Source of the DNA: an uncultured Chloroflexia bacterium | GTDB taxonomy: Bacteria > Chloroflexota > Anaerolineae > CG2-30-64-16 | Direction: 5' to 3' | Length of the DNA: 64,000 nucleotides | Assembly (NCBI GenBank): GCA_963810095.1 | Contig: CAWEMM010000006.1 | Span: 1,419,353-1,483,352 of the forward strand | Part shown: piece after piece, positions 11,056 through 61,402 of the stretch | Layout: each line of letters starts with the position of its first letter | Numbering within the stretch: position 1 is the first letter of the stretch | Position numbers and translations under genes: made by a program | Notes under the pieces: generated by a model | What the model saw: the letters and a program-made list of their open reading frames with translations, nothing else | What the model was told of the DNA's origin: nothing | Database searches by the model: none

Positions 11056-12315
11056 CTACTCCTGCAGGCACTTGAGACAGTAATCCACTTCTTCGCGTGT
11101 GTTGTAGTGCGCCAGGCCCGCGCGCACTACGCCGCCGCTTTCTTCGATCCCCAGGCGCTCGGTGACGGCCAGCGCATAGAAGTTGCCCGACCATACATAC
11201 ACGCCGCGGCGAGCCAGGTGCTCGGCCACCTCGTCCGGATGCTTGCCCGCGAGCCGGAACGCGGCCGTCGGGGTGCGCCGGTCGAACTGGCTTGGATCGG
11301 CGATGCCGTAGAAGGTCAGGCCGGGGATGGCCCGCAGGCCCTGGGCGAAGTGCGCGAACAGGTCCCGCTCATACGCCTTGATGGCGGCCATCGCCTGCTT
11401 CAACGCCAGCCGGCTGCCTGTGAAGCCCGGGAATTGGCCCTCAAACTCGCCTCCGCACATGCTCCCGAGCTCGGCCAGATACTCGACCGCGGCCAGAACG
11501 CCCGCCTGCGCCTCGTGGGCCTGGGTGCCCGTCTCGAACTTGTCGGGCGACGCGTTGCCGGCCGGACGCACCTTGTAGGCCCGCAGCTGCTCCAGAAGCT
11601 CGTGCCGGCCCCACAGCGTGCCCGAGTGCGGGCCGAAAAACTTGTAAGGCGAGCAGATCAGGAAGTCGCAGCCGAGCGCCTGCACGTCGACCGGACCGTG
11701 CGGGACGTAGTGCACCGCATCGACCCATAACCATGCGCCGGCCGCGTGAACCAGGCGGGCAATCTCGGGGATCGGATTGACCGTCCCGACCGCGTTCGAG
11801 GCGTAGCCGACCGCTACGAGCTTGGTCTTGGGGCCGAGCTTGCTCTGCAGGTCGTCGAGGCGCAGCGTGCAGTCTGCCGGGTCGAAGTCGACCTCCTTGA
11901 CCACAACCCCCTTTTCGGCCAGCGCAAGCCAGGGTGCGCGATTTGCGTCGTGGTCGAGCTTCGTGATGAGCACCTCGTCGCCGGGGGCCAGCTCGCGGCC
12001 GATGGCCCGGCTGACGGCAAACGTGAGCGTGGTCATGTTGGCGCCGAAGACGATCTCGGCGGGCGAGGCCGCGTTGAGCAGATCGGCCATGGCCTCATGC
12101 GCGGCGTGCAGCACTGCGTCGCTCTCGCGGGAGGTGCGGAACGCGCCCCCATGGTTGGCGTTCGATCGGATGAGGTAATGCGCCATCGCATCGATCACGC
12201 GCTGGGGCACCTGGGTGCCGCCGGGTCCGTCGAAGTAGACGGCCGGCCGGCCCGCGTCGACCAGGGCGAGCGCGGGGAACTGGGAACGGACGAAGGAAAG
12301 GTCTAGCTGAGACAT
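11056..12315 (-). CDS. aminotransferase class V (cysteine desulfurase-like / isopenicillin-N-epimerase-like PLP enzyme)
   Basis: 419 aa. PLP-lysine motif SPYKFFGPHSG and class-V fold motifs. Confidence 0.85.
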   Translation of the reverse strand: MSQLDLSFVRSQFPALALVDAGRPAVYFDGPGGTQVPQRVIDAMAHYLIRSNANHGGAFRTSRESDAVLHAAHEAMADLLNAASPAEIVFGANMTTLTFAVSRAIGRELAPGDEVLITKLDHDANRAPWLALAEKGVVVKEVDFDPADCTLRLDDLQSKLGPKTKLVAVGYASNAVGTVNPIPEIARLVHAAGAWLWVDAVHYVPHGPVDVQALGCDFLICSPYKFFGPHSGTLWGRHELLEQLRAYKVRPAGNASPDKFETGTQAHEAQAGVLAAVEYLAELGSMCGGEFEGQFPGFTGSRLALKQAMAAIKAYERDLFAHFAQGLRAIPGLTFYGIADPSQFDRRTPTAAFRLAGKHPDEVAEHLARRGVYVWSGNFYALAVTERLGIEESGGVVRAGLAHYNTREEVDYCLKCLQE

Positions 12316-12354
12316 GGTTTGCTCCTGAAGGGATAGACCGTCGCATCTTACCCA

Positions 12355-12435
12355 AGAAACCCGCTTTCTGCCAGAACCACCTTTAGGAAACCAGGTTTCT
12401 CCGAGAAACCGGGTTTCTGCTCTCGCATGCTATAA
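12355..12435. promoter_or_regulatory. divergent promoter region with three palindromic operator-like sites (AGAAACC-N-GGTTTCT) and an extended -10 TGCTATAAT (12427-12435)
   Basis: Palindromes at about 12355-12371, 12387-12401 and 12404-12420 read directly. RBS AAGAGG precedes the GTG at 12476. Confidence 0.45.
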
Positions 12436-19537: not shown

Positions 19538-20293
19538 GTGCTGACCAGCAAGCTCGAGGCCGCGCAGACCCGTCTCCGCGAACGCTCGTATCCCCATTTT
19601 GCCTGGCTGATCAACAAGGAGATCCCCTGGACCGCCCCCACGCGCCCGCTGCGCGAGTCTTCGGTGGCGCTGCTCAGCACCTGCGGACTGTACTGCCTGG
19701 ATAGCCAAGTGCCGTTTGATGCCTGGAACGACGCCGGCGACCCGTCGTTTCGCGAGATTCATATCGACACTCCGGTCGACCGGCTGGCGATCTCGCATTC
19801 GCATTACGATCATGAGCAGGTCAGGTCCGATCTGAACGTGGCCCTGCCCTTGGCCCGCTTCCGGCAGCTCGTCGAGGAGGGGGTGGTCGGGACGCTGCAT
19901 CCCTGGGCCTACAGCTTCATGGGCTACCTCCCCGAAGCGTTTCAACTGATCAGAAAGACGGCGCCCCAGGTGGCAAAGCGGCTGGCGGGGAGTGGGGTGC
20001 ACGCGGCCTTCCTGACCCCCTGCTGACCGATCTGCCAACAGTCCGTTGGACTGATCGCACGGGCCATCGAAGCGGAGGGCATCCCGACCGTTTGCGTCGT
20101 GATGAATCGCGACATTGCGGAGAACGTGGGCATTCCGCGAGCCTTGCACGTGCATTTTCCGTACGGCGCGCCGCTGGGGCCGGCCGCGCACGTGGAGACG
20201 CAAATGGCCGTGATCCGGGAGGCGCTCGGCCTGCTTGCCACGGCGACTGGCCCGGGGCAGATTCTGGAATCCACGGTCGAGTGGCCGGAGTGA
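19538..20293 (+). CDS. candidate selenoprotein, PrdB/GrdB (glycine/proline reductase selenoprotein B) family-like, with in-frame TGA (Sec) at 20024-20026
   Basis: ORFs 19244..20026 and 20099..20293 share one reading frame, separated only by that TGA. A Cys sits directly before the TGA (C-U-P-I-C). A hairpin begins 9 nt downstream. Size about 251 aa with Sec163. Confidence 0.55.
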
Positions 20294-20329
20294 CCGGCTT
20301 TTCTCAGTGATTCTTCAGGAGGAAGACTC

Positions 20330-20593
20330 GTGCGCGTCAGCATCGAATTCTGCGTAGCCTGAAACTACACGCCGCGGGCCGCCAGTTTGGCGGAAACTTT
20401 GGTCAACACCTTCAAGCCTTTCGTGGGCGGGAAACATCCCATCGAGTCCATCACCCTGATCCCCTCGGGCAATGGCCGCTACGAGGTCACGCTTGACGAC
20501 GAGCTGGTCTACTCAAAGGCCGCAACGGGCAAACACACGACAAACGAGTTTATCGTCGACCAGGTGCGAGCAAGACTGAAACTGCAACACTAG
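20330..20593 (+). CDS. selW: SelW-like (Rdx family) selenoprotein with in-frame TGA (Sec11) at 20360-20362
   Basis: GTG start preceded by AGGAGGA. Translation MRVSIEFCVAUNYTPRAASL continues into ORF 20387..20593. Canonical IE(F/Y)C-x-x-U motif. Hairpin CCGCC-AGTTT-GGCGG downstream. Confidence 0.8.
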
Positions 20594-20603
20594 CCAACAA
20601 TCT

Positions 20604-21953
20604 ATGATCGACATCTCGCTGATCATCACCATCGGCGCCATCTTTCTTTTGTCGCTGACGGCCGCATATTTGCGTTCCCGAACGAGAGACCGCTGCCTGA
20701 AGTCTTGGGAAGGATTTCACGTAACGCTGGAGCGCACGAACGGCAAGCTGGTGTGGGGTGAGCTGCACGTGGTGTCGACGGGGATGGAGTTCGTCTATGC
20801 CGGGTCGGTGCAGGACGAACGCCACCTCGAGTCCTCCTATCTTCTATATGCCTCGGAGTACGCCGAGATCCAGGCGCTCTACCGCTACGTCGCCGACCTG
20901 TCGGACCAGAGCAAGCAGCAACGGCTGCGCGACATCGATTCCTCCTTCCACCCGAACCCTGCGCGCCGCCTGCGCCGCGACGCGCAGAACTTCTTCGGCA
21001 CCGCCACCGACTCCCTGAACGAAGTCATCGGCCTCGTCGTCGGCCGGGCGGGCAAAGTGGGCGGCCGCTATATCGCCGCCGACGGCACGTCCTCGATCAA
21101 GAGCCTGAGCGGCAAGGTGCTCGGCCAGGTCGGCTCGATTTACGATCCGCTCCTCGAACGCTATATTGGGAGCCGCGTCGTGATCGAGTTGCTCGAGGGC
21201 CAGGAGGTGCACGAGCATGTGGGGATCTTGCGGAATTACAGCCAGGACTTCATCGAAATTCTCGACGTGCGTTATCCGCAGCGGCGGTCGGTTGCAGTCG
21301 AGGCAGGTGGGCGGGTCGAAGGAGAGGGGTTAATCGTCGAAAAGGTGCCCGGCAGGATCCATCTGCGCAACTGCAATGACTGGCCGGTGCTGGTCCATTC
21401 GCTGGCTTATGCGGACCACGAGGAGATGATTAATGCGGTCGTCGACGGCGACGAGGAAATCGACCTGAACGTGGAAGACGTGTCCGCACAATCCGTTAAG
21501 CTGATCGTGCGCATTCCGGAAGAACTCGACTTTATCGTGCCGCGCAGCCGCTGCGTGGTGCGTCACCGGGCGGAACAGTACCGCCAGGCCGATTTCAAAG
21601 CGCTCGTCGAGGATGTCGTTTTCGACGTGGGAAGGATATTCTCGACCAGCGGCCGCGACAACGGCCACGACAATACCGAGGCGCGGCTGCGTCAAGATGT
21701 GCGCCGGGACCCGATGAACGCGGCGGCCGCGGCTAACCTCGGATTTCTCTTAATGCAGCGGGACGAGTTGGCCGAGGCTGAGAAGTGGCTGCGGCATGCG
21801 CTGCAGTTCGAGTATTCGCTGCCCGACGGCGGCCGCCGGACGCGCATGCAACTGCGCGAGATCGAACGGCGCCGCGAGGGGTTGGATGCCTATGTCCAGG
21901 GTGCGATTCAGTCCTCGCCGACCGTCATTGGAGGCGAAGGCTCGGATTTGTGA
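20604..21953 (+). CDS. hypothetical membrane-anchored protein (N-terminal TM, C-terminal helical region)
   Basis: 449-aa ORF starting 10 nt after the selW-like stop. No family recognised. Confidence 0.55.
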   Translation: MIDISLIITIGAIFLLSLTAAYLRSRTRDRCLKSWEGFHVTLERTNGKLVWGELHVVSTGMEFVYAGSVQDERHLESSYLLYASEYAEIQALYRYVADLSDQSKQQRLRDIDSSFHPNPARRLRRDAQNFFGTATDSLNEVIGLVVGRAGKVGGRYIAADGTSSIKSLSGKVLGQVGSIYDPLLERYIGSRVVIELLEGQEVHEHVGILRNYSQDFIEILDVRYPQRRSVAVEAGGRVEGEGLIVEKVPGRIHLRNCNDWPVLVHSLAYADHEEMINAVVDGDEEIDLNVEDVSAQSVKLIVRIPEELDFIVPRSRCVVRHRAEQYRQADFKALVEDVVFDVGRIFSTSGRDNGHDNTEARLRQDVRRDPMNAAAAANLGFLLMQRDELAEAEKWLRHALQFEYSLPDGGRRTRMQLREIERRREGLDAYVQGAIQSSPTVIGGEGSDL

Positions 21954-21977
21954 TGTGCTATGAGGAGGGATGCTTGT

Positions 21978-22918
21978 ATGGCAGGTGAAACTTGCTGTGT
22001 GTGCGACAAGCCGATCGCCGGCGCGGCAAAGATGCTGGGGGGCCGCGCGTTTTGCGAGGAGCATTATGCCGCGTGTGGGGCAAAGCCGGCGAGGGCTGTG
22101 GCTCGCCACGGTCTTCCTGATCGTCGGGCTGGCGCTGTTCGTCACTGCCGTATTTTTCGCGGCGCCCGCGGTGCGCGACTCGCTGCAGGGTCCGGCCCTG
22201 GTCTTCGCCGGACTGCTGCTGGCGCTCGTTCCGGCGGCCATCTGGATGGTCGTGTTCTACCTGCAAGACCGGGCCGAGCCGGAGCCGAAGCGTTACGTGA
22301 TTGGCGTGTTTTTGCTCGGCGTGCTCCTGGCTGCGGCAATTGGTCAGCCATTGATCCGGGCGTTCGACGTGAACGCATGGGCCGCGCGGCAGCCTGGCAC
22401 TGCGGCTGCTGGCCGGCGTGTGCGTCATCGGCATCACGCAGGAGTTTCTCAAGTACGCGGCGGTGCGCTACACCGTGTTCGGCAGCGCGGAGTTCGACGA
22501 GCGAATTGACGGCATCATCTACGGGGCGGCCGCGGGCCTGGGCTACGCCACCTACCTGAACGTCAATTACGTCATCTCGAACGGCGGCGTGGACATTGGG
22601 ATCGGAGCCGTGCGGATCGCGGTCGTCGCGCTGGCCCAGGCGTCATTCGCCGGCGTCACCGGCTACTTCCTAGGCCGGGCCAAGTTCGAGAATCGGGGGC
22701 CGTTCTGGCTCCCGGTCGGGCTGTTTCTCGCCGCAGTGCTGAACGGGGTCGTCACGACGCTACTCAGCGAGATTACGCGCAGCGGCCTGCAGCCCACGCC
22801 GCTCAATGGCCTGATCTTTGCCGCCGTCGTGGCGGCGCTCACCTTTATCATCCTGTTCACCGTGATCCGCCGGGGTGCGCGGCCGATGCCCGCCGTGGCA
22901 GGAGGAGTGAACTCATGA
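21978..22918 (+). CDS. PrsW-family intramembrane protease with N-terminal zinc ribbon; two apparent frameshifts (about 22085 and about 22395)
   Basis: CCVCD...CEEHYAAC in frame 0. TM region in frame 1. QEFLKY motif and C-terminal TM region in frame 2 (ORF 22418..22918). Confidence 0.5.
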
Positions 22919-23524: not shown

Positions 23525-23533
23525 GAGGCGACG

Positions 23534-25111
23534 ATGAAACGTAACTACCGCACGGCAATTCTCGCCGTCCTGGTGCTGCTGAGCCTGGCGGGCACGCTGG
23601 CGGGCAGTGCGCCGCGTGCCGAGGCCGTGGACAAGGACGTCGCCCAGCGCATCCTGCGCGCATCGGTCAAGCTGCTGACCCCCATGGATGCGGACGAGAA
23701 CTCGGGGAGCCTCTGTTCGGGCAGCATGCTGGACCCGCAGGGCTACATCCTGACGAACTTCCACTGCATCGGCTATCCGACGTCGGGCCCGAAGGACCAG
23801 GAGCTGGAAAGCCTGGGCATGGAGCCCGGCGACCTGTTCAACTCGAAGGGGCTGTCGGTGGTGGCGGTGACGGACGACCCCCGCAAGCTCCCGAAGCCCA
23901 CCTATGTCGCGCAGGTCATGTCTTCCGACCCCGAGCTGGACATTGCCGTGCTTAAGGTGATTGCGTACTACAACAGCAAGCAGAAGTTGACGGACAACCT
24001 GCCGGTGATGACGATGGACGTGGCCGATTCGGAGGCCGTTGAGACGCTGGACGACGTCATCGTCGTTGGCTATCCGGGCATTGCGGGCGACACCGTTACG
24101 GCCACGGAGGGCCGTATCTCCGGCTTCATTGACGAGGACGGCGACGATAACTTCGATTGGTTCAAGACCGACGTGTTGGTGAATCAGGGGAATTCGGGCG
24201 GCTCCGCGCTGAACGCCAAGGGCGAATTGATCGGCGTGCCGACGGCCCGGCTGCAGGACAAGTCGGGCAACGTGATCTACCTGATCCGGCCGGTCAACCG
24301 GGCCGCGGCCTATATTGAAGAAGCGCACAAGGTGGGCGCCAGCGGCGGGCAGGTGGCGACAAAGCCGCCAAGCAAGCCGGCCGCGCCTGCTCAGACGAGC
24401 GGCAAGGGGACGTTCGGCGAGCCCATCTTCGGCACGGGCTTCGACGATAACGATGGGATCACCGGCGAAGCAACCACGTTCAACTCGGGCATCAAGGAAA
24501 TTCACGCGGGTCTGCCTTACGAGAACATGCGGGACGGAACCTCCTGGGGCTACCAGTGGCAGTACGAGGGCCAGGACGTGACGGGCGAGTCGGACCTGGC
24601 GTGGGAGTTCGGCCAGTCTGGCGTGGTCGACTTGAGCCTGACCGGCAAGAAGGGGCTCACGGACGGCGAGTACAGCCTGCAGGTATACCTGCGCGGCGAC
24701 CTCGTGCAAGAGACCGGGTTTACGGTCGGACGCAAGCCGGGCAACAACCGGCCGCCCCAGAAGCCGCAGAAGCCGGTGGACGAGGGTGTGACGATCACCG
24801 GCACGATCATCGACCATGCCACCCGGCGGCCCATCCGCGACGCGATCGTCGTATTCCTGAATCCGGGGCAGACGGTGGACGATTTTGATGCGGACTCGAG
24901 TGACGGCAAGACAGAGACGGTATTCGCCTACGGCGTCAGCGACGCAAAGGGGATTTACACGCTGAACAATCCGCTGCCGCGCGGCGAGGTCTACACCGTG
25001 ATCGTTGGTGCGAAGGGCTACGCCCGCATCGCCGAGGACGACGCGCTGGAGATAACGCAGGATGATCCGGACGTGATCGAGCTTGATCCGCTGGAGTTGG
25101 ACAAGCAGTAG
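23534..25111 (+). CDS. secreted trypsin-like (S1) serine protease with C-terminal CarboxypepD_reg-like domain
   Basis: Signal peptide. Catalytic motifs TNFHC, DIAVLKV, GNSGGS. RBS AGGAGG. Confidence 0.85.
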   Translation: MKRNYRTAILAVLVLLSLAGTLAGSAPRAEAVDKDVAQRILRASVKLLTPMDADENSGSLCSGSMLDPQGYILTNFHCIGYPTSGPKDQELESLGMEPGDLFNSKGLSVVAVTDDPRKLPKPTYVAQVMSSDPELDIAVLKVIAYYNSKQKLTDNLPVMTMDVADSEAVETLDDVIVVGYPGIAGDTVTATEGRISGFIDEDGDDNFDWFKTDVLVNQGNSGGSALNAKGELIGVPTARLQDKSGNVIYLIRPVNRAAAYIEEAHKVGASGGQVATKPPSKPAAPAQTSGKGTFGEPIFGTGFDDNDGITGEATTFNSGIKEIHAGLPYENMRDGTSWGYQWQYEGQDVTGESDLAWEFGQSGVVDLSLTGKKGLTDGEYSLQVYLRGDLVQETGFTVGRKPGNNRPPQKPQKPVDEGVTITGTIIDHATRRPIRDAIVVFLNPGQTVDDFDADSSDGKTETVFAYGVSDAKGIYTLNNPLPRGEVYTVIVGAKGYARIAEDDALEITQDDPDVIELDPLELDKQ

Positions 25112-25182: not shown

Positions 25183-25773
25183 TTACTTAAGCAGCGTGCG
25201 CTTCAGGAACTCAACGATCACATGCGTTGGGATTGCAAACCCCACGTCCGGGCCGTTGATCATGGTGTTGATCCCCAGCAGCCGGCCGCGGACGTCCACC
25301 AGTGGTCCGCCGGAGTGGCCCGGCCGCATGTGAAGGCTGACCACCAGCCAGTCTCGCATGGCCGGCCGCATCTCGGGCCACTGCCGGCCCATGCCGATGA
25401 TGACCCCCCCGGTCGCCGCCCCTGTCACGCCCCACGGGTGGCCCAGCGCCATGACCCACTGGCCGGGCCGCACCGCCCGTGAGTCGGCCAGTTGGATCGT
25501 GGGTAGCGTCTTCGCATCGATCCTCAGCGCGGCCAGGTCACAGTCCCGGTCGACGGCCAGGATCTCCGCATCGAACTCCCGTCCGCCAACCAGCTCGACC
25601 TTTAGCGGGCCGCGGCTTGCCACATGCGCGTTTGTGACAATCAGCCCCTCGGGATGCCAGATGGTCCCCGCCCCTGCGCCACGCCGCCCGTTTCGCACCT
25701 GCACCAGGCTCTTGTACACTTCGTCGACTACGTCCGCCGACTCGACATTCAACGCCTGCACCTGATCCATCAT
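25183..25773 (-). CDS. trypsin-like serine protease (S1C) lacking a PDZ domain
   Basis: TNAHV...DLAAL...GHSGGP catalytic triad context. Confidence 0.8.
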   Translation of the reverse strand: MMDQVQALNVESADVVDEVYKSLVQVRNGRRGAGAGTIWHPEGLIVTNAHVASRGPLKVELVGGREFDAEILAVDRDCDLAALRIDAKTLPTIQLADSRAVRPGQWVMALGHPWGVTGAATGGVIIGMGRQWPEMRPAMRDWLVVSLHMRPGHSGGPLVDVRGRLLGINTMINGPDVGFAIPTHVIVEFLKRTLLK

Positions 25774-25797
25774 CTCATCCCCGGTCTTCGATACGCC

Positions 25798-26716
25798 TTA
25801 CCCCTGCTCGCCGACCAAAACGCTAATCTCGGTGACCTGGCCGCCGCGCAACAGGCGAACCGGGACGGCCTTGCCGACGCGGTCACCGCCGAGCGCGGCC
25901 AGCAGGTCGTCGAGGTGCGCGGTGCGCTGGCCGTCGAGCGAGAGCAGCGTGTCGCCCATGAAGAGGCCGCTGCGTTCCGCAGGGCTGCCGGCTTCAACCG
26001 AGCCCAGCAAAAGCCCCGTCTCCTGTCCGACTTGCTCTGCTATAGCCTGCGGCAGGCGCACGGTCTGTGCGCCTACGCCCAGATAGCCCGCGCTTCACCC
26101 GCCCGTGCCGCAGCAGCGCCTCGGCCACCCGCCGGATCGTCTCGGCCGGGATGGTCAGGGTAACGTCGCGCAGCATGGCCGACGTGTTAATGCCGACGAA
26201 CTTGCCCCCGGCACTGACCAGCGGCCCGCCCGAAAAGCCCGGGTACATGAGCGCGTCCGTCTGGAGGTAGTAGTCTAGCTGCCCGCCGGCGGGCGTGCGC
26301 CAGTCCTTTTTGAGCGCGCTGATGATCCCGAGGGTCGCCATAACGCTCTGCCCCGGCCGGCCGAGCGCCAGTGCGAGGTGGCCGACATGGAGGAAGTCAC
26401 CGCCCGCCCAAGCCGGCGCCGCCAGTTCTCCGGCCGCCTGCAGACCGTCGGCGCCGATGCGGAGGAGCGCGAGGTCGGTGGTCGGATCGCGGCCGACGAG
26501 GGTCGCGGTCACCGTGCGCCCGCCGGCCAGGCCAATGCCAATGTTCTCGTCCTGCTCGACGACATGATGCGCGGTAACGATCAACCCGTCCGCAGACCAA
26601 ACGACGCCGGTCGCGGGCAGCCGCCGCCGGCCTTCCACCCGCACGATGCTCGGGCCTGCGATCTCCACTGCCGACGCCAGCGCGTCGGACACTGATGCCA
26701 ATGCTTCGCCAGTCAT
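25798..26716 (-). CDS. HtrA/DegP-like serine protease with PDZ domain; apparent frameshift near 26065
   Basis: Protease domain in ORF 25994..26716. PDZ domain in ORF 25798..26061, which is a different frame. Confidence 0.7.
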
Positions 26717-26819
26717 AGTTGCCTCCGGTAATGGTTTACGGCGGCAGCATACCGCTTCCGACGCGCCGGCGCATCGCTCGTTGTGGGGGGAGGGGACCTG
26801 GAAAAAAGGTTAGGGAGGG

Positions 26820-28537: not shown

Positions 28538-29456
28538 TCAGGCCACGACCGCCCGGTACGATGGGGCAAACTCGAGCGCGGTGCTGATCGTGCGGAACTG
28601 GATGTCGACGGTATCTTCGATGCGACGCGCATAGCCGCCGCCCATGACCACGGCGACGGGGATGCCGGCCTCGCGGCAGCGCTCCAGCACAAGGCAGTCG
28701 CGCCGGGCCAGGCCCTCTTTGGTCAAGGCGAGCCGGCCCAGGGTGTCGCCCGCGAAGGGATCCGCGCCGGCGAGGTAGATGGCGAAGTCTGGGCGGAAGG
28801 TGGGCAGAACGCGGTCCAGAGCGCTCGTCAGCAGGTCGAGGTACAGATTATCGTCGGCCCCGTCGGGCAACTCCACGTCCAGGTCGCTTTGCTCCTTGTG
28901 GTGCGGGAAGTTCTTGGCGCCGTGCATGGAGAAGGTGTAGATGCTCGGGTCGCCGGCCAGGAGGGCGGCCGTCCCGTTCCCCTGGTGTACGTCGCAATCG
29001 ACGATCACCGCCCGGCGCGCCCGGCCCTCGCGCTGCATGGCGCGGCGCGGCCACGACACAATCGTTGAACACGCAGAAGCCCTCGCCGTGATCGGCGAAG
29101 GCGTGGTGCGTGCCGCCGGTCAGGCTGGCGGCCAGCCCCTCTTGCAGCGCGGCCCGGCAGGCCCCCAGCGTGCTGCCCACGGAGCGCCGGCAGCGCTCGA
29201 CCAACTCGGGCGACCAGGGGAGCCCGATACGCCGCACCTCGCGGGCCGACAATTCGCCGGTAACCACCTTGTCCAGGTAACTTTGCTCGTGGGCCAGGAG
29301 CAACTCGTCGTCGGTTGCCGCGTCTGGCACGAGCATCTCGCAGCGGTCGCCCAGCTCGCGGCCGACTCGTTCACGCAGCAACGAGTACTTGGCTGCGGGG
29401 AACCGGTGGCCCTGGGGCAGCGGGTAGGTGAAGTGGTCGCAGTAAAAGACTTTCAC
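28538..29456 (-). CDS. histone deacetylase-family protein (AcuC/HDAC-like); apparent frameshift near 29050
   Basis: N-terminal part in ORF 28848..29729. C-terminal part in ORF 28538..29059. GTGA overlap with the upstream gene. Confidence 0.7.
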
Positions 29457-40369: not shown

Positions 40370-40391
40370 TTGATCGTTTCACGGAGGAAGC

Positions 40392-42888
40392 ATGCCGCCA
40401 TTGGTGAAAGCAACCGCCGCCACGCTAAGCGCCACCCTGACCGGCGTTGGTCGCGCCCGCCGGCCCACGCTGAAAGGCCATCTGCGACTCCCCGAGTTGA
40501 GCGGCCCGGTCGAGGTCTTTCGGGATGCGTGGGGGGTGCCCCATCTCTACGCCGGCAGCGCGGCGGATCTCTGTTTCGCGCAGGGCTTTGTCCATGCCCA
40601 GGACCGGCTTTGGCAGATGGATTTCCAGCGCCGCCTCGTCGCCGGCCGGCTGGCCGAGGTATTGGGGCCGGCGGTGGTGGGCGTGGACCGCAGCCTGCGG
40701 GTGCTCGGCATGTACCGGGTGGCAGAGGCGGAGGTAAGCCTCCTGAGCGCGGAGGCGCGGCGAGAGGCTGAGGCCTACGCCTCGGGCGTCAACGCGGCCA
40801 TCGAACGGCAGCCGCTGCCGGTCGAGTTCACCTTGCTGCGCTACCGGCCTTACCCTTGGCGAGCGGCGGACTCGCTGTGCTGGGCGAAGATGATGTCATG
40901 GGCGCTGTCGGTCAACTGGGAGAGCGAGCTGCTGCGCGCGAGGCTGATCGAAGTGCTGGGCGTAGAGCGGGCCGCGCAGCTCGAGCCGCTGCTGGCAAGC
41001 CCGATTGTAACGGGGGGCGAGCGGCGTCCCGCGCACCCCTACGGGCCGCTGCCGCCGCGGAATGCGGCGCAAGGACGTGAAGGGGCCGCTCAAGCCGACA
41101 GCGCACCAGAAATCCACATGCCTTCCACGCCGGGCACCCCCGGCAGCAATAACTGGGTCATTGCTGGCGCGCACACGGCCAGCGGCAAGCCCCTTCTGGC
41201 GAACGATATGCACCTGTTGGTCTCCGCGCCGGCCATCTGGTACGAGAACCACCTTGTCTGCACCGATCCCGGCAGCCCGGTCGACGTCACCGGCGTTTCA
41301 TTTCCCGGGATTCCTTTTGTGGTCGCCGGGCATAATGACCGCGTGGCCTGGGGCTTTACCAACGGCTTCCCCGACGTGCAGGACCTGTTTGTCGAGCACC
41401 TCCGCCGGACCGAGCGCGGGGTGGAGTACGAGCACCGGGGCCAATGGCTGCCCGCCGAGGTGCGGCGGGAGGAAATCCGGGTCAAGGGCGAGGCCGCGGT
41501 AACGGAAGAAGTCATCGTCACGGTCCACGGGCCGGTCATCAACCGGCTGGCGGTGGGACTGGCGATGCAGCCCGGCGCGGACGGTCTGCCTGAGCAGCCG
41601 CTCGCGTTGTGCTGGACCTCGCTGACGCCCCACCCAATGGTGGAGTCGCTGCGGGCCATGAACCGGGCGAGTTCGTGCGCCGAGTTCCGGGAAGCCTTGC
41701 GCGGCTGGGTCGCGCCGACCCAGAACGTGGTCTATGCGGACACGGACGGCAACATCGGCTACACCTTCGCCGGTCGAGTGCCGATCCGCCCGCGGGGCGA
41801 AGGCCGCGTGCCCGCGCCGGGCTGGACCGGCGAGTATGACTGGGCAGGCTGGATTCCTTTTGAGGAATTGCCGCACCAACAGAACCCGGCCGAGGGCTAC
41901 ATCGTGTCGGCCAACAACCAGCCGGTCGACGAGAGTTATCCGTACTTCATCGGGCGGGAGTTTGCCCTGGGCGACCGGGCCGGCCGGATTGCCGAGCTCA
42001 TCCGCTCGGGTTCCGCCATCAAGCCGAGCGACATCCGGATCATGCAGCTGGACCAGGAGGCGTCGTCGCTGAAGCGGCTCGCGAGTGTCTTGGGCGGGCT
42101 GGAGCCCTCCGAGCCGGAGCTGCGGGGCTTGGTGACCCTGGTCAGGGCATGGGACGGCCGGCTGACGGCGGAAACCCCTGCGGGCACGATCTGCGAGATC
42201 AGCGGCCCGCGAGGTGCAGATGCTGGTGATGAGGGCCGTGTTGGGCGAAGCCGGCGTTAGCGTGACGCCTGAGAACCCGATTCCCCTCGTCGAACGGGTG
42301 TTGGGTCGCGGGCCCACCCCTGGGATCCAGGACTTTAGCGCTTTCTATCACCGAGTTTGGGAGTGGCTGTACTCGGTGTTGGAGGAGCCGGCGTCGGAGT
42401 GGTGGGATCTGGGGGGCGGCGAGACGCGCGACGACGTGCTGCTGGTTGCGCTCCGGCGCACCTACGACTACCTCGCCGACCGACTGGGCCAGCCTGACCT
42501 GCCCGGCTACGCACAATGGGCGTGGGGCCGGCTTCATACCGTGACGTTCGGGCACGTTGCCGGGCAGGCCCCCACGGTGGCGCGCCATTTCAATCGCGGC
42601 CCGTACCCGGTCGGTGGAGATGAAAACACGGTGTTTGCGACCGGCGGCGGTGTGACCCCCGAAGCCAGCCGGGCCGTGGTCGCGCCGCCCTTCCGCTTCA
42701 TCGCGGACCTGTCCGACTTGTCGCGCTGCTACGGCTTGCTGGCCCCGGGCAACTCGGGGCGACCTGACAGCCCGCACTATGATGACCAGGTTGAGGCGTG
42801 GTTCAAGGGAAAGTATCATCCGATGCTGTACAAGCGGGAGGATGTGGAGCGGGGCGCCCGGCGCAAGCTCATTTTGGCGCCGGCATAG
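40392..42888 (+). CDS. penicillin amidase (S45 Ntn-hydrolase family); apparent frameshift near 42200
   Basis: Alpha-subunit motifs plus the SNNW nucleophile region in ORF 40392..42260. C-terminal region in ORF 42214..42888. Confidence 0.75.
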
Positions 42889-48439: not shown

Positions 48440-49075
48440 TCAAATGCCGAGCAGCAGATCGGAAACCTTCGCCGCGCCGACGCTCAGAAAGCCGCCGATG
48501 CTCAATTGGGGCAGCACGAGCGGCACCAGGAAGATCGCCATGAGGATCATCGGGCCGTAGGCCTGCAAGGGAAGCAGCACCGACGAGATACGCTCGCCGA
48601 CAAGCCCGTTCAGCACGGCGAAGCCATCGAGCGGCGGAAGCGGGATCAGGTTGAACAGGAATAGCGTGGCATTGATCAGGATGAACATGTAGACGAAGTC
48701 GAGCACGTTTTGCGACGCGCCCTGCAGCAGGCCCAGGCGATACGCGAGCGCCATCAGGGTTGCCATCAACAGGTTGCTGACCGGACCGGCGGCCGAGACG
48801 AGCGCGTGGCCGACGCGCGGCCCGTACCGCAAGTGATAAGGATTCACCGGCACCGGTTTCGCCCAGCCGAAATGTGCGACCAGCAGGAGGATCGATCCGA
48901 GCGGGTCGAGATGCTTGAGCGGGTTAAGCGTCAGGCGACCCTGCTGCTTGGCCGTGTTGTCTCCCAGCCGGTAGGCCACGAAGGCATGCGCGAGCTCATG
49001 AATAGGGAACCCGACCAGCAGGATCACGAGCAGTGCCGCGAGGGTCGGGAGATCGAGTCCTAAGACGTTTGACAA
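48440..49075 (-). CDS. site-2 protease family (M50) zinc metalloprotease
   Basis: HELAHA motif within a TM helix. 211-aa multi-TM protein. Confidence 0.75.
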   Translation of the reverse strand: MSNVLGLDLPTLAALLVILLVGFPIHELAHAFVAYRLGDNTAKQQGRLTLNPLKHLDPLGSILLLVAHFGWAKPVPVNPYHLRYGPRVGHALVSAAGPVSNLLMATLMALAYRLGLLQGASQNVLDFVYMFILINATLFLFNLIPLPPLDGFAVLNGLVGERISSVLLPLQAYGPMILMAIFLVPLVLPQLSIGGFLSVGAAKVSDLLLGI

Positions 49076-49170
49076 GGGGTGCTCCGTTCACGTACTTCGG
49101 GCGGATTATAGCATACGGTCCGACGCCCACCAAGGCATCTTCATTCCGTTTCGCGTGTGTGTTATGATGA

Positions 49171-51416
49171 TTGCTCCCTATGGCACGCAGCATCGTCGAT
49201 CTAAGCACCCTTCCATGGCGTTTCGGCCAGGTCGCCCGCCAGGGCTTTTCGCACGCGGCCGAGCGACGACCGGCGCGCGGTCGCCAACTGGGAACCCGCG
49301 TCAGTCCCCGGCGACGTGCGAGCGGATCTGCTGGCGACGGGATATCTGCGCGGCCTGGATACACCGGAGGATCTTCCGCGGTCAGGCTGGGTGGACAGCG
49401 TCGACTGGTGGTATCGGGTCGATATCGATCCGGTCGAACCGGGAACCACGGTGGTTCTCGAAGCCGACGGGATCGACTACCTCAGCAGCGTGTGGCTGGA
49501 TGGAGAGTTTCTGGCCGCGCACCAGGGCATGTTTGCGCGGCAGGCACTCGTGCTCCCGCCGCCGCATGGAGGCGCCCGGGAAGCACGAGCTGGCGGTGCG
49601 GATTTGGGGCGCGGGTGCGCTGCCGCGCCTCCCCAACCCTCCGCTGCGCCGGGGCCTGCGCCGGCTGATCTGCGGCCTGGGTGTCGTCGACGAATACTTC
49701 CCCGATCGCCTCGCCACCCCCAAAGCGCAATACAGCTTCGGGTGGGACTTCGCGCCGCGCGTGCTGAGCACGGGCATCTGGGACGGCATCCGCCTGGTCC
49801 ACTGCCGGGGCGCCTATCTTTCCGACGTGCAGGTGCTTGCCGAGCCGCTGAGCGAGGGCGACCCGACCCCTGTCCGCTGGACCGTGCGGCTTACGACCCG
49901 GCGATTCGAGGAGCAGCGGCTCACTGCGCGGGTCGAGCTGCGCACGCTCGAAGGTGAACGGATCCCGCTGGCGCGCGATACCTTCGCGTTGGGCGAGGGC
50001 AATGCGGCGGACCTGGTCTTTGATTCGCCGCGACTGGCCCGCTGGTGGCCGTGGGACCAGGGTGAGCCGGCCCTCTACCGCCTTTCAGTTCGACTGTTCG
50101 ACGAGCGCGGGCCGGCCGACGAGGCGGAGACGGTGGTCGGGCGTGCGCACGGTGGGCCGCGAGCGCTTCAAGAACGGGCAGCCCTGGCGTTTCACGGTCA
50201 ACGGCCGCTCGGTCTTCCTGCGCGGGGCGAACTGGGTGCCCGCCGACATCCTGCCCGGCCGGGTGGCCGAGAATGACTATGCCGGCCTGATCGGGCAGGC
50301 GCGGGCCGGGGGGGTCAACTTCCTGCGGGTGTGGGGCGGCGGCATCCGCGAGAAGCCCGCGTTCTGGGAGCTGTGCAACCGGCAGGGCATCCTGGTCATG
50401 CAGGAGTTCCCCCTCGCTTGCACGTTCCTCGATCACTACCCGCGCGATCCGGGCTACCTCTCCGTGCTCGAGTCTGAGGCGCAAGGCATCGTCCGCGGCT
50501 TGCGCAACCACCCAAGTCTGATCGCCTGGTGCGGGGGCAACGAGATCAGCCCGCAACGTGAGCGGCTTCCTCTGCGTACTATTGAGCGGGTGCTGGCGCG
50601 CGAAGACCCCGGCCGGCCCTGGATTCCGGCTTCTCCGTCGACAGGGCGACATCCACAACTGGGACGTGTGGCATGGCGGCGCGCCCTGGCAGTCGTTGGC
50701 GCGGGTTCGCGCCCCGTTCATGAGCGAGTTCGGCGTGCAGGCGCTGCCCCATGCCGACACCATCGCCGAGATGTTTCCGTCGGGCCCGCCCACGCGGCTG
50801 GACGATGCCGGGTGGGCCGCGCGCAAGCTGCAGGCCGACAAGCTGCGTCACTACTGTGGGCCCTTGCCCGAAGAGGACCTGGTAGCCACGATTGAGGCTA
50901 CTCAGAGGACGCAGGCCGCGGCTCTGCAGGCGGGGATCGAGGCGTGCCGGCTCCGCCGCGAGGGCTCGGGCAGCCCGCGCCCATGCGGCGGGCGTGGCCT
51001 TCTGGCAGTTCAATGAGCCGTGGCCCGCGGTCTCCTGGTCCCTGGTCGACCGGCGCGGCCGGCCAAAGGCGGCCTACAGTATGCTCATGCGCAGCTACCA
51101 ACCCCTGCTCGTGGCGGCCGTGTTCGAGCGGCGGGCATGGCGGGCGGGCGACCGGTTCGACGCCGAGATCTGGGTGGTGAACGACGGGGCGGAAGAAGCA
51201 GCAGAGGGCGAAGTCGAGGCGCTGTTGGACGGGCGCAGCGTCTGCCCACGCAGCCGCGTCGCGGCGCCTCCCGCGTCTGCCCGGCAGGTTGGGGCATTCG
51301 GCGTGCAGTTGGCGGGGCCCCCGGCCACCCTCGCGTTGGCGTGGCGGGCAGGCGGTGCGGTTCTTGCCGCCAACGAGTATGACCTGCAGGTCTACTTGCC
51401 GCCGCCGCAGCCCTGA
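49171..51416 (+). pseudogene. beta-mannosidase-like GH2 glycoside hydrolase, broken into at least 4 frames
   Basis: GH2 segments (RGANWVP, NEISPQRE, FWQFNEPWPAVSWSLVD) spread over ORFs 49316..49957, 49954..50895 and 50892..51416. Confidence 0.6.
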
Positions 51417-58476: not shown

Positions 58477-58562
58477 TGTATAGACCGGGGACATAGTAGA
58501 CAGTCGTTCGGAGACATGGTAGACGCTAGAATGGGAATAACTGCCACCGGAAGGAGGCTGAT

Positions 58563-59705
58563 ATGCCCTGGCGAGAGGCAAATGCCATGTCCTTACGACT
58601 TGATTTCGTGACCCGAGCTGGTCACGAAGCTGCTAACGTGCGGGCCCTGTGCCGCGAGTTCGGTATCAGCCCGAACACTGCGTACAAGTGGCTTGTGCGC
58701 TACCAGGCGGCGGGGCCCGCGGGGCTGGCCGATCGCTCACGGCGCCCGAACGCAGTCCGAGCCGACACGCCGCCCGGCCGCGAACAGTTGGTGCTGGCGA
58801 CGCGCCAGGCCCACCCGGCCTGGGGCGGCCGCAAGCTCAAGGCCTACCTGGAGCAGGCCGGCTATGCGGACGTGCCGGCAGCTTCCACCATCACAGCCAT
58901 TCTGCGCCGGCACGGGGCGCTGGATGACCAGGAGGGCGCTCAGCATCGCGCCTTTCAGCGTTTCGAACGTGAGGCGCCCAACGAGCTGTGGCAGATGGAC
59001 TTCAAGGGCCATTTTGCGCTCGGGGATGGTACGCGCTGCGACCCCTTGACGGTCCTCGACGACCATGCGCGCTTCCTGTTGGCGCTGGACGCCTGTGCCG
59101 ACGAGACCCGCCGCACGGTGCAGGCCGCGCTGACCGGCGTCTTCGAGCGCTACGGCTTGCCCGAGCGCATCCTGTGCGATCATGGGCCACCGTGGGGCGC
59201 CCCCAATGCCGGCGACGTGTACACGACGTTGAGTGCGTGGCTCTTGCGGCTGGGCATCGGGGTCGTGCACGGGCGGCCCAAGCATCCGCAGACGCAAGGC
59301 AAGGACGAGCGATTGCATCGCACGTTGCGGGCCGAGTTGCTGCGCCGGCAGACGTTCGCCGATCTGCCGGCCTGTCAGCCCGCCTTCGATACCTGGCGGC
59401 AGATGTATAATGAACAGCGCCCGCATGAGGCGCTAGCCATGCAGGTGCCGGCGGCCCGCTATCGGCCCAGCCCGCGCCCGTGGCCCGCCCGCCTGCCCGC
59501 GATCGAGTATCCGGCCAGCGACCGAGTGCGCCGGGTGCAAGATAAGGGCCAGATCAAAGTCGGCGGCCACGAGTTTCGCATCGGCAAAGCCTTCATCGGC
59601 TACCCGGTGGGCCTCCGGCCCACGAACCAGGACGGCTGCTATGACGTTTACTTCTGCGCCCAGCGCATTGGCCAAATTCAACTATCCGCCGGGCAACGGA
59701 TTTAG
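58563..59705 (+). CDS. IS481-family transposase (DDE integrase core), intact
   Basis: 380 aa. HTH N-terminus and rve core (WQMDFKGHF...LCDHGPPW...NEQRPHEAL). Confidence 0.9.
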   Translation: MPWREANAMSLRLDFVTRAGHEAANVRALCREFGISPNTAYKWLVRYQAAGPAGLADRSRRPNAVRADTPPGREQLVLATRQAHPAWGGRKLKAYLEQAGYADVPAASTITAILRRHGALDDQEGAQHRAFQRFEREAPNELWQMDFKGHFALGDGTRCDPLTVLDDHARFLLALDACADETRRTVQAALTGVFERYGLPERILCDHGPPWGAPNAGDVYTTLSAWLLRLGIGVVHGRPKHPQTQGKDERLHRTLRAELLRRQTFADLPACQPAFDTWRQMYNEQRPHEALAMQVPAARYRPSPRPWPARLPAIEYPASDRVRRVQDKGQIKVGGHEFRIGKAFIGYPVGLRPTNQDGCYDVYFCAQRIGQIQLSAGQRI

Positions 59706-59804
59706 CTCAGCCTGTGGGTAAGGGGCTGTCCGAAAAGTAATCGGGCGGCCCCTTTTTTGCGTGCTTTTCTCGCGTTCTTTAAGGATTCATGGTTTAATGG
59801 GGGC

Positions 59805-61402
59805 ATGAAACGCAAACCTGCTGCCCCCGTCTTCAAGCCCTACACGATGGCTCAGCCGCAGTTGCTGCCGCCGAGCCTGGATGAGTTGATCGAGCCGGAC
59901 CACCTGGTGCGGGTGGTAAATGCGGCGATCGACCAGTTGGATTTGCGGCCGCTGCTGGCGCAGTACCCCGGCGGCGGGACGTCCAGCTATCATCCGCAGA
60001 TGCTGCTGAAGGTGTTGGTGTACGCCTATTGCAGCAAGATCTACTCGTCGCGGCGGATTGCGGCGGCGCTGCGGGAGAACATTCACTTCATGTGGTTGAG
60101 TGGCGGGAACCGGCCGGACTTTCGCACGATCAACGACTTTCGCGGGCAGCGGATGAAGGGCGTGATCGACGCGGTGTTCGCCGAGGTGCTGCAGTACCTG
60201 GTCGAGGCGGGGTACGTGCAGTTGGAGCACTACTTCGTCGACGGGACGAAGATCGCCGCCGATGCGAACCAGCACAAGGTGGTGTGGGCCAAGCGCACGG
60301 CGCGTTACCAGCAGCGGGTGCGGGAGCAGATCGCGTGAGTTGCTGCGGCAGATCGAGCAGGTGAATGCTGACGAGCAGGCCGAGTACGGCGATGCCGATC
60401 TGGAAGAGCGGGGCCGGCGGTGGGGGTGGCGAGATCGACTCGGACGCAACTCAAGGAGCGCATCGACCAACTCAACCAGCGGCTCCGCGAGCGTCAGCAC
60501 CCCAAGCCCGAAGCCCAGGCAGCCGAGAAGGCGCTGAAGAAACTGGCGACGGATTGTCTGCCGCGGTTGGAGAAGTACGAGCAGCAGACCGCGACGCTGG
60601 CGGGGCGGTCGAGCTATGCCCAGACCGACCCGGACGCCACGTGCATGCGGATGAAGGAAGACCGCGGCGCCGAGCGGCCCTGGCCCAAGCCGGCCTACAA
60701 CGTGCAGGTGGGCACGGAAGGGCAATTCATCGTCGGGTTCAGCGTGCACGACCAGGCGGGCGACACCGGGTGCCTGATCCCGCATCTGGAGCAGGTGCGC
60801 CAGAACACCGGCGGCCGCTTACCGCAGAACGTGGTGGCGGATGCGGGGTACGGCAGCGAAGAGAACTACGCCTATCTGGAACAGCAGCAGGTGGGCAACT
60901 ACCTCAAGTACAACACCTTCTACCAGGACACGCATCATTACCGCGACCCGGCCGTGCTGCGGGCGCACCAGTTCCGGGCCGAGAACTTCGCCTACGACGC
61001 GGCCACCGACACCTTCGTCTGCCCGGCCGGCCAGCGGCTGCACTTCCAGTACACCACCCGCTACACCAGCGACAACGGCTACCTGAGCGACCGCCGCATC
61101 TACGAATGCTTCGCGTGTGCCGACTGCCCGCTGCGCAGCCAGTGCACCCGGGCCAAAGGCAACCGCCAGATTCGCATCAGTTTCCGCTTGCTCGCCTACC
61201 GCAAGCAAGCCCGCGACAACCTGACCAGCGCCGACAGGTGAGCGCTTACGCGCCGCGCGCTCCGTCGAGGTGGAAACCGTCTTCGGGCATATCAAACAGA
61301 ATATGGGCTTCCGGAGATTTCACTTACGCGGGCGGGCGAAAGTGAAGACCGAATGGGGGCTCGTGAGCATCGCTCACAACCTGAAGAAGGTGGCGGCCGC
61401 AT
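59805..61402 (+). pseudogene. IS1182-family transposase split over three frames
   Basis: N-terminal part in ORF 59757..60338, middle in 60420..61241, C-terminal tail (RRAVEVETVFGHIKQNMGFRRFHLRG...) to 61402. Confidence 0.7.

Follow-up and report, generated by a model that had tools for sequence, protein, structure and literature searches.

An in-frame UGA followed by a conserved hairpin in a SelW-like gene next to a PrdB-like gene: a very probable selenoprotein locus of an Anaerolineae-type bacterium

In the window (the whole 64,000-nucleotide stretch of DNA that was analyzed), a short gene related to the SelW/Rdx family lies downstream of a gene related to the GrdB/PrdB family, and each carries an in-frame TGA that is followed by a hairpin (Table 1). 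The SelW-like frame opens with a GTG, placed 6 nt behind a Shine-Dalgarno sequence, and reads (M)RVSIEFCVA up to the TGA at positions 20360 to 20362, after which it continues with NYTPRAASLAETLV... (these residues are also given, in the same frame, as NYTPRAASLAETLVNTFKP...) and ends at a TAG at 20591 to 20593. An initial annotation of this DNA had a GTG with an AGGAGGA sequence opening a frame that crosses the TGA and continues into a 68-aa open reading frame (ORF), and the sequence does read so. The length of 88 aa that it gave holds for the number of codons with the stop included; the product itself, however, is 87 aa. A mechanical ORF listing yields only the 68-aa ORF, from a TTG at 20387. 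Upstream, the PrdB-like ORF that ends at its own TGA likewise runs on in frame, to position 20293; it starts with a GTG, and relatives have an ATG there. The stop of the PrdB-like gene and the start of the SelW-like gene are separated by 36 nt.

Table 1. Positions of the two genes, their in-frame TGA codons and the associated signals in the window
Feature	Position	Strand	Basis or remarks
PrdB-like (GrdB/PrdB family) gene, 251 aa, LTPC-U-PIC, stop TGA at 20291-20293	19538..20293	+	Profiles
In-frame TGA, predicted Sec codon 163 of the PrdB-like gene	20024..20026	+	Conserved in relatives
PrdB-like SECIS-type hairpin, CAGUCC-GUU-GGACUG	20039..20053	+	Invariant stem, 74 sequences
Shine-Dalgarno sequence AGGAGGA	20317..20323	+	Relatives have GGAGG-like purine runs at an equal distance; remaining upstream region unconserved
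SelW-like (Rdx family) gene, probable selenoprotein, Sec codon 11	20330..20593	+	Translation, Pfam Rdx, TIGR02174
Predicted redox motif Cys-Val-Ala-Sec (TGC GTA GCC TGA)	20351..20362	+	Conservation, PDB alignment
SECIS-type hairpin, CCGCCA-GUU-UGGCGG	20379..20393	+	6-bp stem, GUN loop; covariation, geometry

Pfam scans of about 50 ORFs in the window returned ordinary housekeeping and envelope genes. These encode PTPS-related membrane proteins, SurE, an ABC transporter, a cysteine-desulfurase-like protein (TIGR01976), a LysM protein, a radical-SAM/GNAT ELP3-like protein, a YtxH-like protein, PrsW, trypsin-like peptidases, Fpg, an ECF sigma factor, an acyl-CoA dehydrogenase, a penicillin amidase, an ABC1 kinase, a prephenate dehydrogenase, and transposases. 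The neighbors of the PrdB-like gene are the radical-SAM/GNAT protein, the YtxH-like protein, the SelW-like gene, and an uncharacterized 449-aa protein. The ORF for this last protein (20604 to 21953, forward strand) starts 10 nt past the SelW-like stop, and a weak TPR at the C terminus was its only family match. Some syntenic relatives have it (e.g., L003, L004, and L006) and others do not (L002, L005, and L023), which makes it a variable insert in a conserved neighborhood. Farther downstream are three closely spaced genes for trypsin-like serine peptidases (23525 to 25111 on the forward strand; 25183 to 25797 and 25994 to 26809 on the reverse strand) and, at 58530 to 61241 on the forward strand, a mobile-element cluster in which an IS481-type integrase (rve/HTH) precedes a DDE transposase whose coding region appears to be divided between a DUF772 and a DDE_Tnp_1_6 ORF. 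A number of other genes look split as well, at 40374 to 42885, 49002 to 50892, and 21960 to 22918 on the forward strand and at 28541 to 29119 on the reverse strand. Among them are a penicillin amidase with profile positions 1 to 501 and 517 to 674 in two overlapping frames, a GH2 glycosidase in two frames, a PrsW protease (with an N-terminal zinc-ribbon part) in two or three frames, and a fragment with a histone-deacetylase domain; these may be assembly indel errors or pseudogenes.

Scored with Cys written in place of Sec, the full SelW-like protein matched Pfam Rdx (PF10262) at 66.7 bits (cutoff, 22.6) and NCBIfam TIGR02174 (CXXU_selWTH) at 48 bits (cutoff, 34.2), in both cases over profile positions 1 to 73 of 74, which agrees with the membership in the SelW/Rdx family that had been proposed for the conceptual translation. 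The truncated 68-aa ORF scored 35.9 bits against Pfam Rdx, over profile positions 20 to 73. The 19 N-terminal residues that span the TGA thus add about 31 bits, which is beyond what chance supplies. The Campylobacter-type equivalog NF041051 (SelTWH_Campy) was not reached (68 bits against a cutoff of 88), and on these scores the protein is best filed under the broader subfamily. Homologues of known structure were found at E values of 1.5e-6 to 7e-3 (PDB entries 3DEX [SAV_2001], 2FA8 [Atu0228], 2OBK, 2OKA, and 2P0G), and homology to these solved members suggests a thioredoxin-like fold. In the alignments with 3DEX and 2FA8 (E of about 1e-6), the UGA falls on the second Cys of their CxxC motif (CTQC). 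C8-V-A-U11 is the predicted CxxU active-site motif, N-terminal and directly after the first strand.

To collect relatives, genomes were scanned at one per species with peptide patterns taken from the C-terminal half of the protein and with no selection for a TGA. The 80 loci obtained were mostly from Anaerolineae and Caldilineaceae metagenome-assembled genomes (MAGs), with the remainder from some Gemmatimonadota (Palauibacter), Acidimicrobiia, Armatimonadota, and a Nitrospinota. IE(F/Y)C-x-x-TGA was found in frame at 80/80 loci, in keeping with the CxxU motif recognized initially, and the TGA occupied the same codon in all 31 further copies of the gene identified on metagenome contigs. The initial annotation had named Cys in close relatives as evidence against a selenoprotein; no such codon was seen, as all 111 relatives have TGA and none has TGC or TGT at this position. 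Even the nearest relatives are only 70 to 80% identical in DNA, yet syntenic. Relatives start with ATG or GTG at this codon. Across codons 2 to 10 of 22 close sequences, minor alleles numbered 59 at third positions and 25 and 18 at the other two, and conservation ended abruptly at the ATG or GTG, upstream of which only the GGAGG-like Shine-Dalgarno sequence recurred. Variation biased toward third positions, together with an edge of conservation at the start codon, indicates that translation begins 10 codons upstream of the UGA and has to proceed across it.

The expectation that ORF callers would truncate this gene was borne out by the databases. The 120 closest proteins are nearly all fragments of 60 to 70 aa that cover approximately 75% of the query and start with (M/L)AE(T/A)LV just past the TGA, and a set of closest homologues that all begin at this point is the signature of systematic gene-caller truncation. 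Several of them carry the JGI names "selenoprotein W-related" or "predicted Rdx family selenoprotein."

These data bear on the possibility that the UGA is a real stop, in which case the product would be the 68-aa protein from the TTG at 20387, or none at all, and the 10 upstream codons would be left over from a gene that has decayed or been split. This ORF is just what a mechanical listing yields, it passes the Pfam Rdx cutoff by itself, and TGA is the commonest ordinary stop in the window, ending 19 of the 35 Pfam-supported ORFs. We nevertheless regard a real stop as very improbable, because the 68-aa product would be devoid of the first strand and of the whole CxxU/CxxC motif that defines the family, whereas the 10 upstream codons, the start, and the Shine-Dalgarno sequence are kept in frame at 80/80 loci, with substitutions of the coding type. 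In addition, the TTG has no Shine-Dalgarno sequence of its own and sits inside the conserved hairpin described below, and a pseudogene would not be expected to keep one identical TGA across several phyla.

A hairpin of the form CCGCC-AGTTT-GGCGG had been reported after the UGA. A hairpin is indeed present there; the better description, however, is a 6-bp stem (CCGCCA/UGGCGG), one base pair longer than reported, closed by a GUU loop. The hairpin lies 16 nt past the UGA, and the G of its loop is 23 nt from the A of that codon. Folding of the single sequence downstream of the SelW-like TGA gave a z score of -0.14, no different from shuffled sequences, and the values after the two TGAs (SelW-like and PrdB-like) spanned -0.14 to -1.24 relative to shuffles. 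As single-sequence folding was uninformative on its own, a comparative test was needed, and for the SelW-like hairpin it was performed on an ungapped alignment (A2) of 72 distinct sequences in which stem columns 20 to 25 face columns 29 to 34. It was found that 94.7% of the cells of the 6-bp stem were paired. The pair at columns 23 and 31 was CG in 32 sequences, UG in 23, and UA in 17 and was never mismatched, while at columns 21 and 33 the pairs CG, GC, UA, and UG all occurred, one sequence (L019) carrying the compensated arrangement CCACC/GGUGG. The covariation score was reached by none of 500 shuffles, and when the 3' partner was slid by 1 to 3 columns as a control, pairing collapsed from 85% to between 21 and 56%. 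Changes in the stem are at the same time coupled amino acid changes (Ala/Val with Ala/Thr), so that the constraint on the RNA shows up in the protein as well. An extension of the lower helix that was predicted for the window sequence was only 33% paired among relatives and was dropped from the model; neither a conserved lower helix nor a bulged U was found in the 72-sequence alignment.

Bacterial SECIS elements are described as having a stem of 6 to 8 bp and, in the loop, a conserved G at a distance of about 20 nt from the UGA (PMC4605307), with a small apical loop that contains a G (PMC1088965). As judged by its stem, loop, and spacing, the SelW-like hairpin fits this description. The window was also scanned for a strict signature, consisting of a TGA, 10 to 22 nt, a 6-bp stem, and a GUN loop, which returned six sites where about 1.5 were expected. 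Only two of these were in frame with real genes, namely, the SelW-like and PrdB-like sites; the other four were off-frame relative to Pfam-supported genes and were rejected. A scan for further in-frame TGAs based on GC3 proved too noisy in a sequence of 67% GC and missed the TGA of the SelW-like gene.

The PrdB-like gene was assigned at the level of the family. Its product scored 30.2 bits against Pfam GRDB (cutoff, 22), whose profile ends just before the TGA, 148 bits against the NCBIfam PrdB model TIGR04483 (positions 19 to 229 of 238), below the equivalog cutoff of 300, and 44.6 bits against TIGR01918, below the cutoff of 65.45. On these scores it is considered a family-level homologue rather than a PrdB equivalog. 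UxxC is the motif of PrdB (PMC1088965), and the LTPC-U-PIC of the window protein places its predicted Sec within such a motif, at the position where members of the GrdB/PrdB family have Sec. The TGA is kept in 15/15 syntenic genome loci and 80/80 metagenome loci (95/95), and protein alignments run straight across it. ORF callers split the gene in two at this codon. In its hairpin the loop G lies 19 nt after the A of the UGA. Among 74 distinct sequences the stem was essentially invariant, the sole changes giving G.U wobbles, and the third base of the loop took all four values. The Gly codon within the stem was GGA or GGG and never GGC or GGU, and the Gln codon just outside the stem alternated between CAA and CAG while the one inside was always CAG. 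This pattern at synonymous sites suggests that the hairpin is held by constraint beyond that on the protein. No domains of the partner genes prdA and prdC were identified among the ORFs scanned across the window.

To identify whether genes for selenocysteine decoding lie nearby, the window was searched with ARAGORN, Rfam, and Pfam (the last on the approximately 50 ORFs), and none of selA, selB, selD, and the gene for tRNA-Sec was found; the only tRNA detected by ARAGORN and Rfam was a tRNA-Leu. The full insertion machinery that the initial annotation took the gene to imply for the organism is thus only presumed, with indirect support from the two genes with a conserved UGA and SECIS-type hairpin and from the Sec use and tRNA-Sec published for Chloroflexi (PMC1794560; PMC5389517). 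Nor was any Sec machinery gene present within 6 kb of the SelW-like gene in the 80 relatives. Probing with Escherichia coli SelD and SelA by tblastn gave no match in the window or at the 80 relative loci, a result that serves as a lead only. ARAGORN returned no tRNA at all in about 0.65 Mb of DNA flanking the SelW-like gene in 60 genomes (L001 to L060; not N-masked), for which roughly seven would be expected. This is likely because these regions are homologous neighborhoods and not independent samples. The cysteine-desulfurase-like gene on the reverse strand (11059 to 12429) matches TIGR01976 at 491 bits and is not SelA. Its product has weaker similarity to SufS and to the selenocysteine lyase SclA, and any link of this gene with selenium mobilization is pure speculation.

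Taken together, the locus very probably harbors a SelW-like gene that encodes selenocysteine, and what the present comparison contributes is the reading frame, the family, the conservation of the UGA and of the hairpin, and the covariation of the hairpin. Translation would start at the GTG, which has a strong Shine-Dalgarno sequence upstream, and the ribosome would not be released at the UGA, as the hairpin would act as a bacterial SECIS element. From what is established for bacterial Sec decoding, SelB loaded with GTP and Sec-tRNA(Sec) would be recruited to this element when the ribosome draws near. Sec would then be inserted at codon 11, and translation would continue to the TAG at 20591 to give a product of 87 residues. 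The PrdB-like gene upstream would use the same kind of SECIS. A redox role for SelW-like proteins has been suggested on the basis of the CXXU motif (PMC1088965), and established biology of the family would make this motif a thiol/selenol oxidoreductase site.

Near-cognate read-through of UGA occurs in bacteria. If the SelW-like UGA were read through without Sec, by near-cognate insertion of Cys or Trp or under a reassigned code, a full-length protein that is not a selenoprotein would result, and the absence of Sec machinery from the window would be accounted for. Reassignment of the code was rejected, as TGA ends 19 of the 35 Pfam-supported ORFs in the window. Read-through of any kind without Sec also appears highly unlikely in the face of a conserved, covarying hairpin with SECIS geometry after the UGA and the alignment of the UGA with a redox Cys, a classic Sec/Cys pair. 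The same arrangement, moreover, recurs in a gene 300 nt upstream at the known Sec position of GrdB/PrdB, and Chloroflexi are documented users of Sec with a tRNA-Sec type of their own (PMC1794560; PMC5389517), an 8/4-type tRNA-Sec having been reported for them (PMC5389517).

That the organism really encodes the Cys form, with a TGC turned into TGA by an error of sequencing or assembly, can hardly be entertained: the penicillin amidase, GH2, and PrsW genes are each split over two frames in the window, but such apparent errors in an imperfect assembly are indels and would not produce a TGC-to-TGA substitution common to 111 relatives whose sequences were assembled independently and show no TGC or TGT, and a Cys form would give no reason for the adjacent conserved SECIS hairpin. 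The conservation data contradict each of the three alternatives, which together retain only a small share of the overall probability, with Sec insertion in the SelW-like gene as the best explanation.

To examine how regularly the two genes occur together, their arrangement was compared across relatives. In 15 of the 23 close genome loci (paired loci L002, L006 to L017, L020, and L023), the PrdB-like gene immediately preceded the SelW-like gene. For the metagenome loci (L081 to L125 and L149), a SelW-like gene was located 13 to 223 nt downstream on the same strand in 24 of the 32 close loci with enough sequence. No SelW-like neighbor was found in the PrdB-like subclade below 55% identity among the metagenome loci. 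The pair thus appears confined to one Anaerolineae subclade and is not obligatory there. With a gap of 36 nt, the two genes in the window are probably cotranscribed. A 2026 review lists the operons grdA-grdB, prdB-prdC, and Prx-SELENOW-like and not a PrdB-like/SelW-like pair (PMC13188914, section 9); the pair was not found in the literature and is the one mildly new point to emerge here. It is conceivable, if rather unlikely, that it constitutes a dedicated redox module of two selenoproteins in one Anaerolineae clade, in which the SelW-like protein would be the selenol/thiol partner of an orphan PrdB-like reductase. The analogy would be with GrdA serving GrdB, which we put forward tentatively, as a hypothesis and not a finding. 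As about one-quarter to one-third of the close relatives do not have the pair, and the more distant PrdB-like subclade lacks it entirely, it may instead be an inherited gene order. If the module were real, it would give bacterial SelW-like proteins their first concrete partner, and the conserved adjacency is in any event a modest lead on the function of both families.

Descriptions of bacterial SelW-like (CxxU) selenoproteins date back to 2005, and the family and its Sec forms are long known (PMC1088965, PMC2398784, PMC13188914); the 2026 review classes them as "predicted with high confidence" (PMC13188914). In metagenomes they rank with the most abundant families of selenoproteins. PrdB held third place in abundance in the Sargasso Sea and was one of the most abundant families in GOS. 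As SelW-like CxxU proteins are among the commonest known bacterial selenoproteins, the gene in the window adds nothing unexpected biologically. Its main value lies in annotation, where standard callers cut the SelW-like gene down to a 68-aa fragment without the active site and split in two the PrdB-like gene, which is restored here. With both genes corrected, this Anaerolineae-type organism stands out as a likely user of selenocysteine, and a search tailored to the lineage could start from the two SECIS examples, which share the same minimal form (6-bp stem and GUN loop).

Compared with known bacterial SelW-like proteins (PF10262, formerly PF05169; TIGR02174), the window gene shows no categorical difference. 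[quoted passage not shown] In the solved Cys forms, IEYC-x-x-C aligns residue for residue with the IEFC-V-A-U of the SelW-like protein. All five solved homologues (3DEX, 2FA8, 2OBK, 2OKA, and 2P0G) have Cys where the window gene has UGA. Unlike the members of the Anaerolineae clade, they lack an insertion of approximately six residues (VGGKHPIE, with an invariant His36-Pro37). The clade also has an invariant YSKAAT..H motif (YSKAATGxHT) near the C terminus in alignment A1; the insertion and this motif map to window positions 20420 to 20445 and 20510 to 20545, respectively.

The SECIS of the E. coli type, as in fdhF and fdnG, is likewise a hairpin within the coding sequence; it immediately follows the UGA on the 3' side and has a 6-bp stem and a small apical loop in which a G (and U) approximately 20 nt away is conserved (PMC4605307; PMC1088965). 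The conserved part in the window gene differs in its minimal form, a helix of 6 bp with a GUN loop of 3 nt. As for gene order, grdA-grdB, prdB-prdC, and Prx-SELENOW-like each consist of two adjacent selenoprotein genes on the same strand, as the pair in the window would. The window pair has no PrdA or PrdC partner among the ORFs scanned, and with its UxxC in the PrdB-like protein and CxxU in the SelW-like protein, it recalls the combination of GrdB (UxxCxxC) and GrdA (CxxU).
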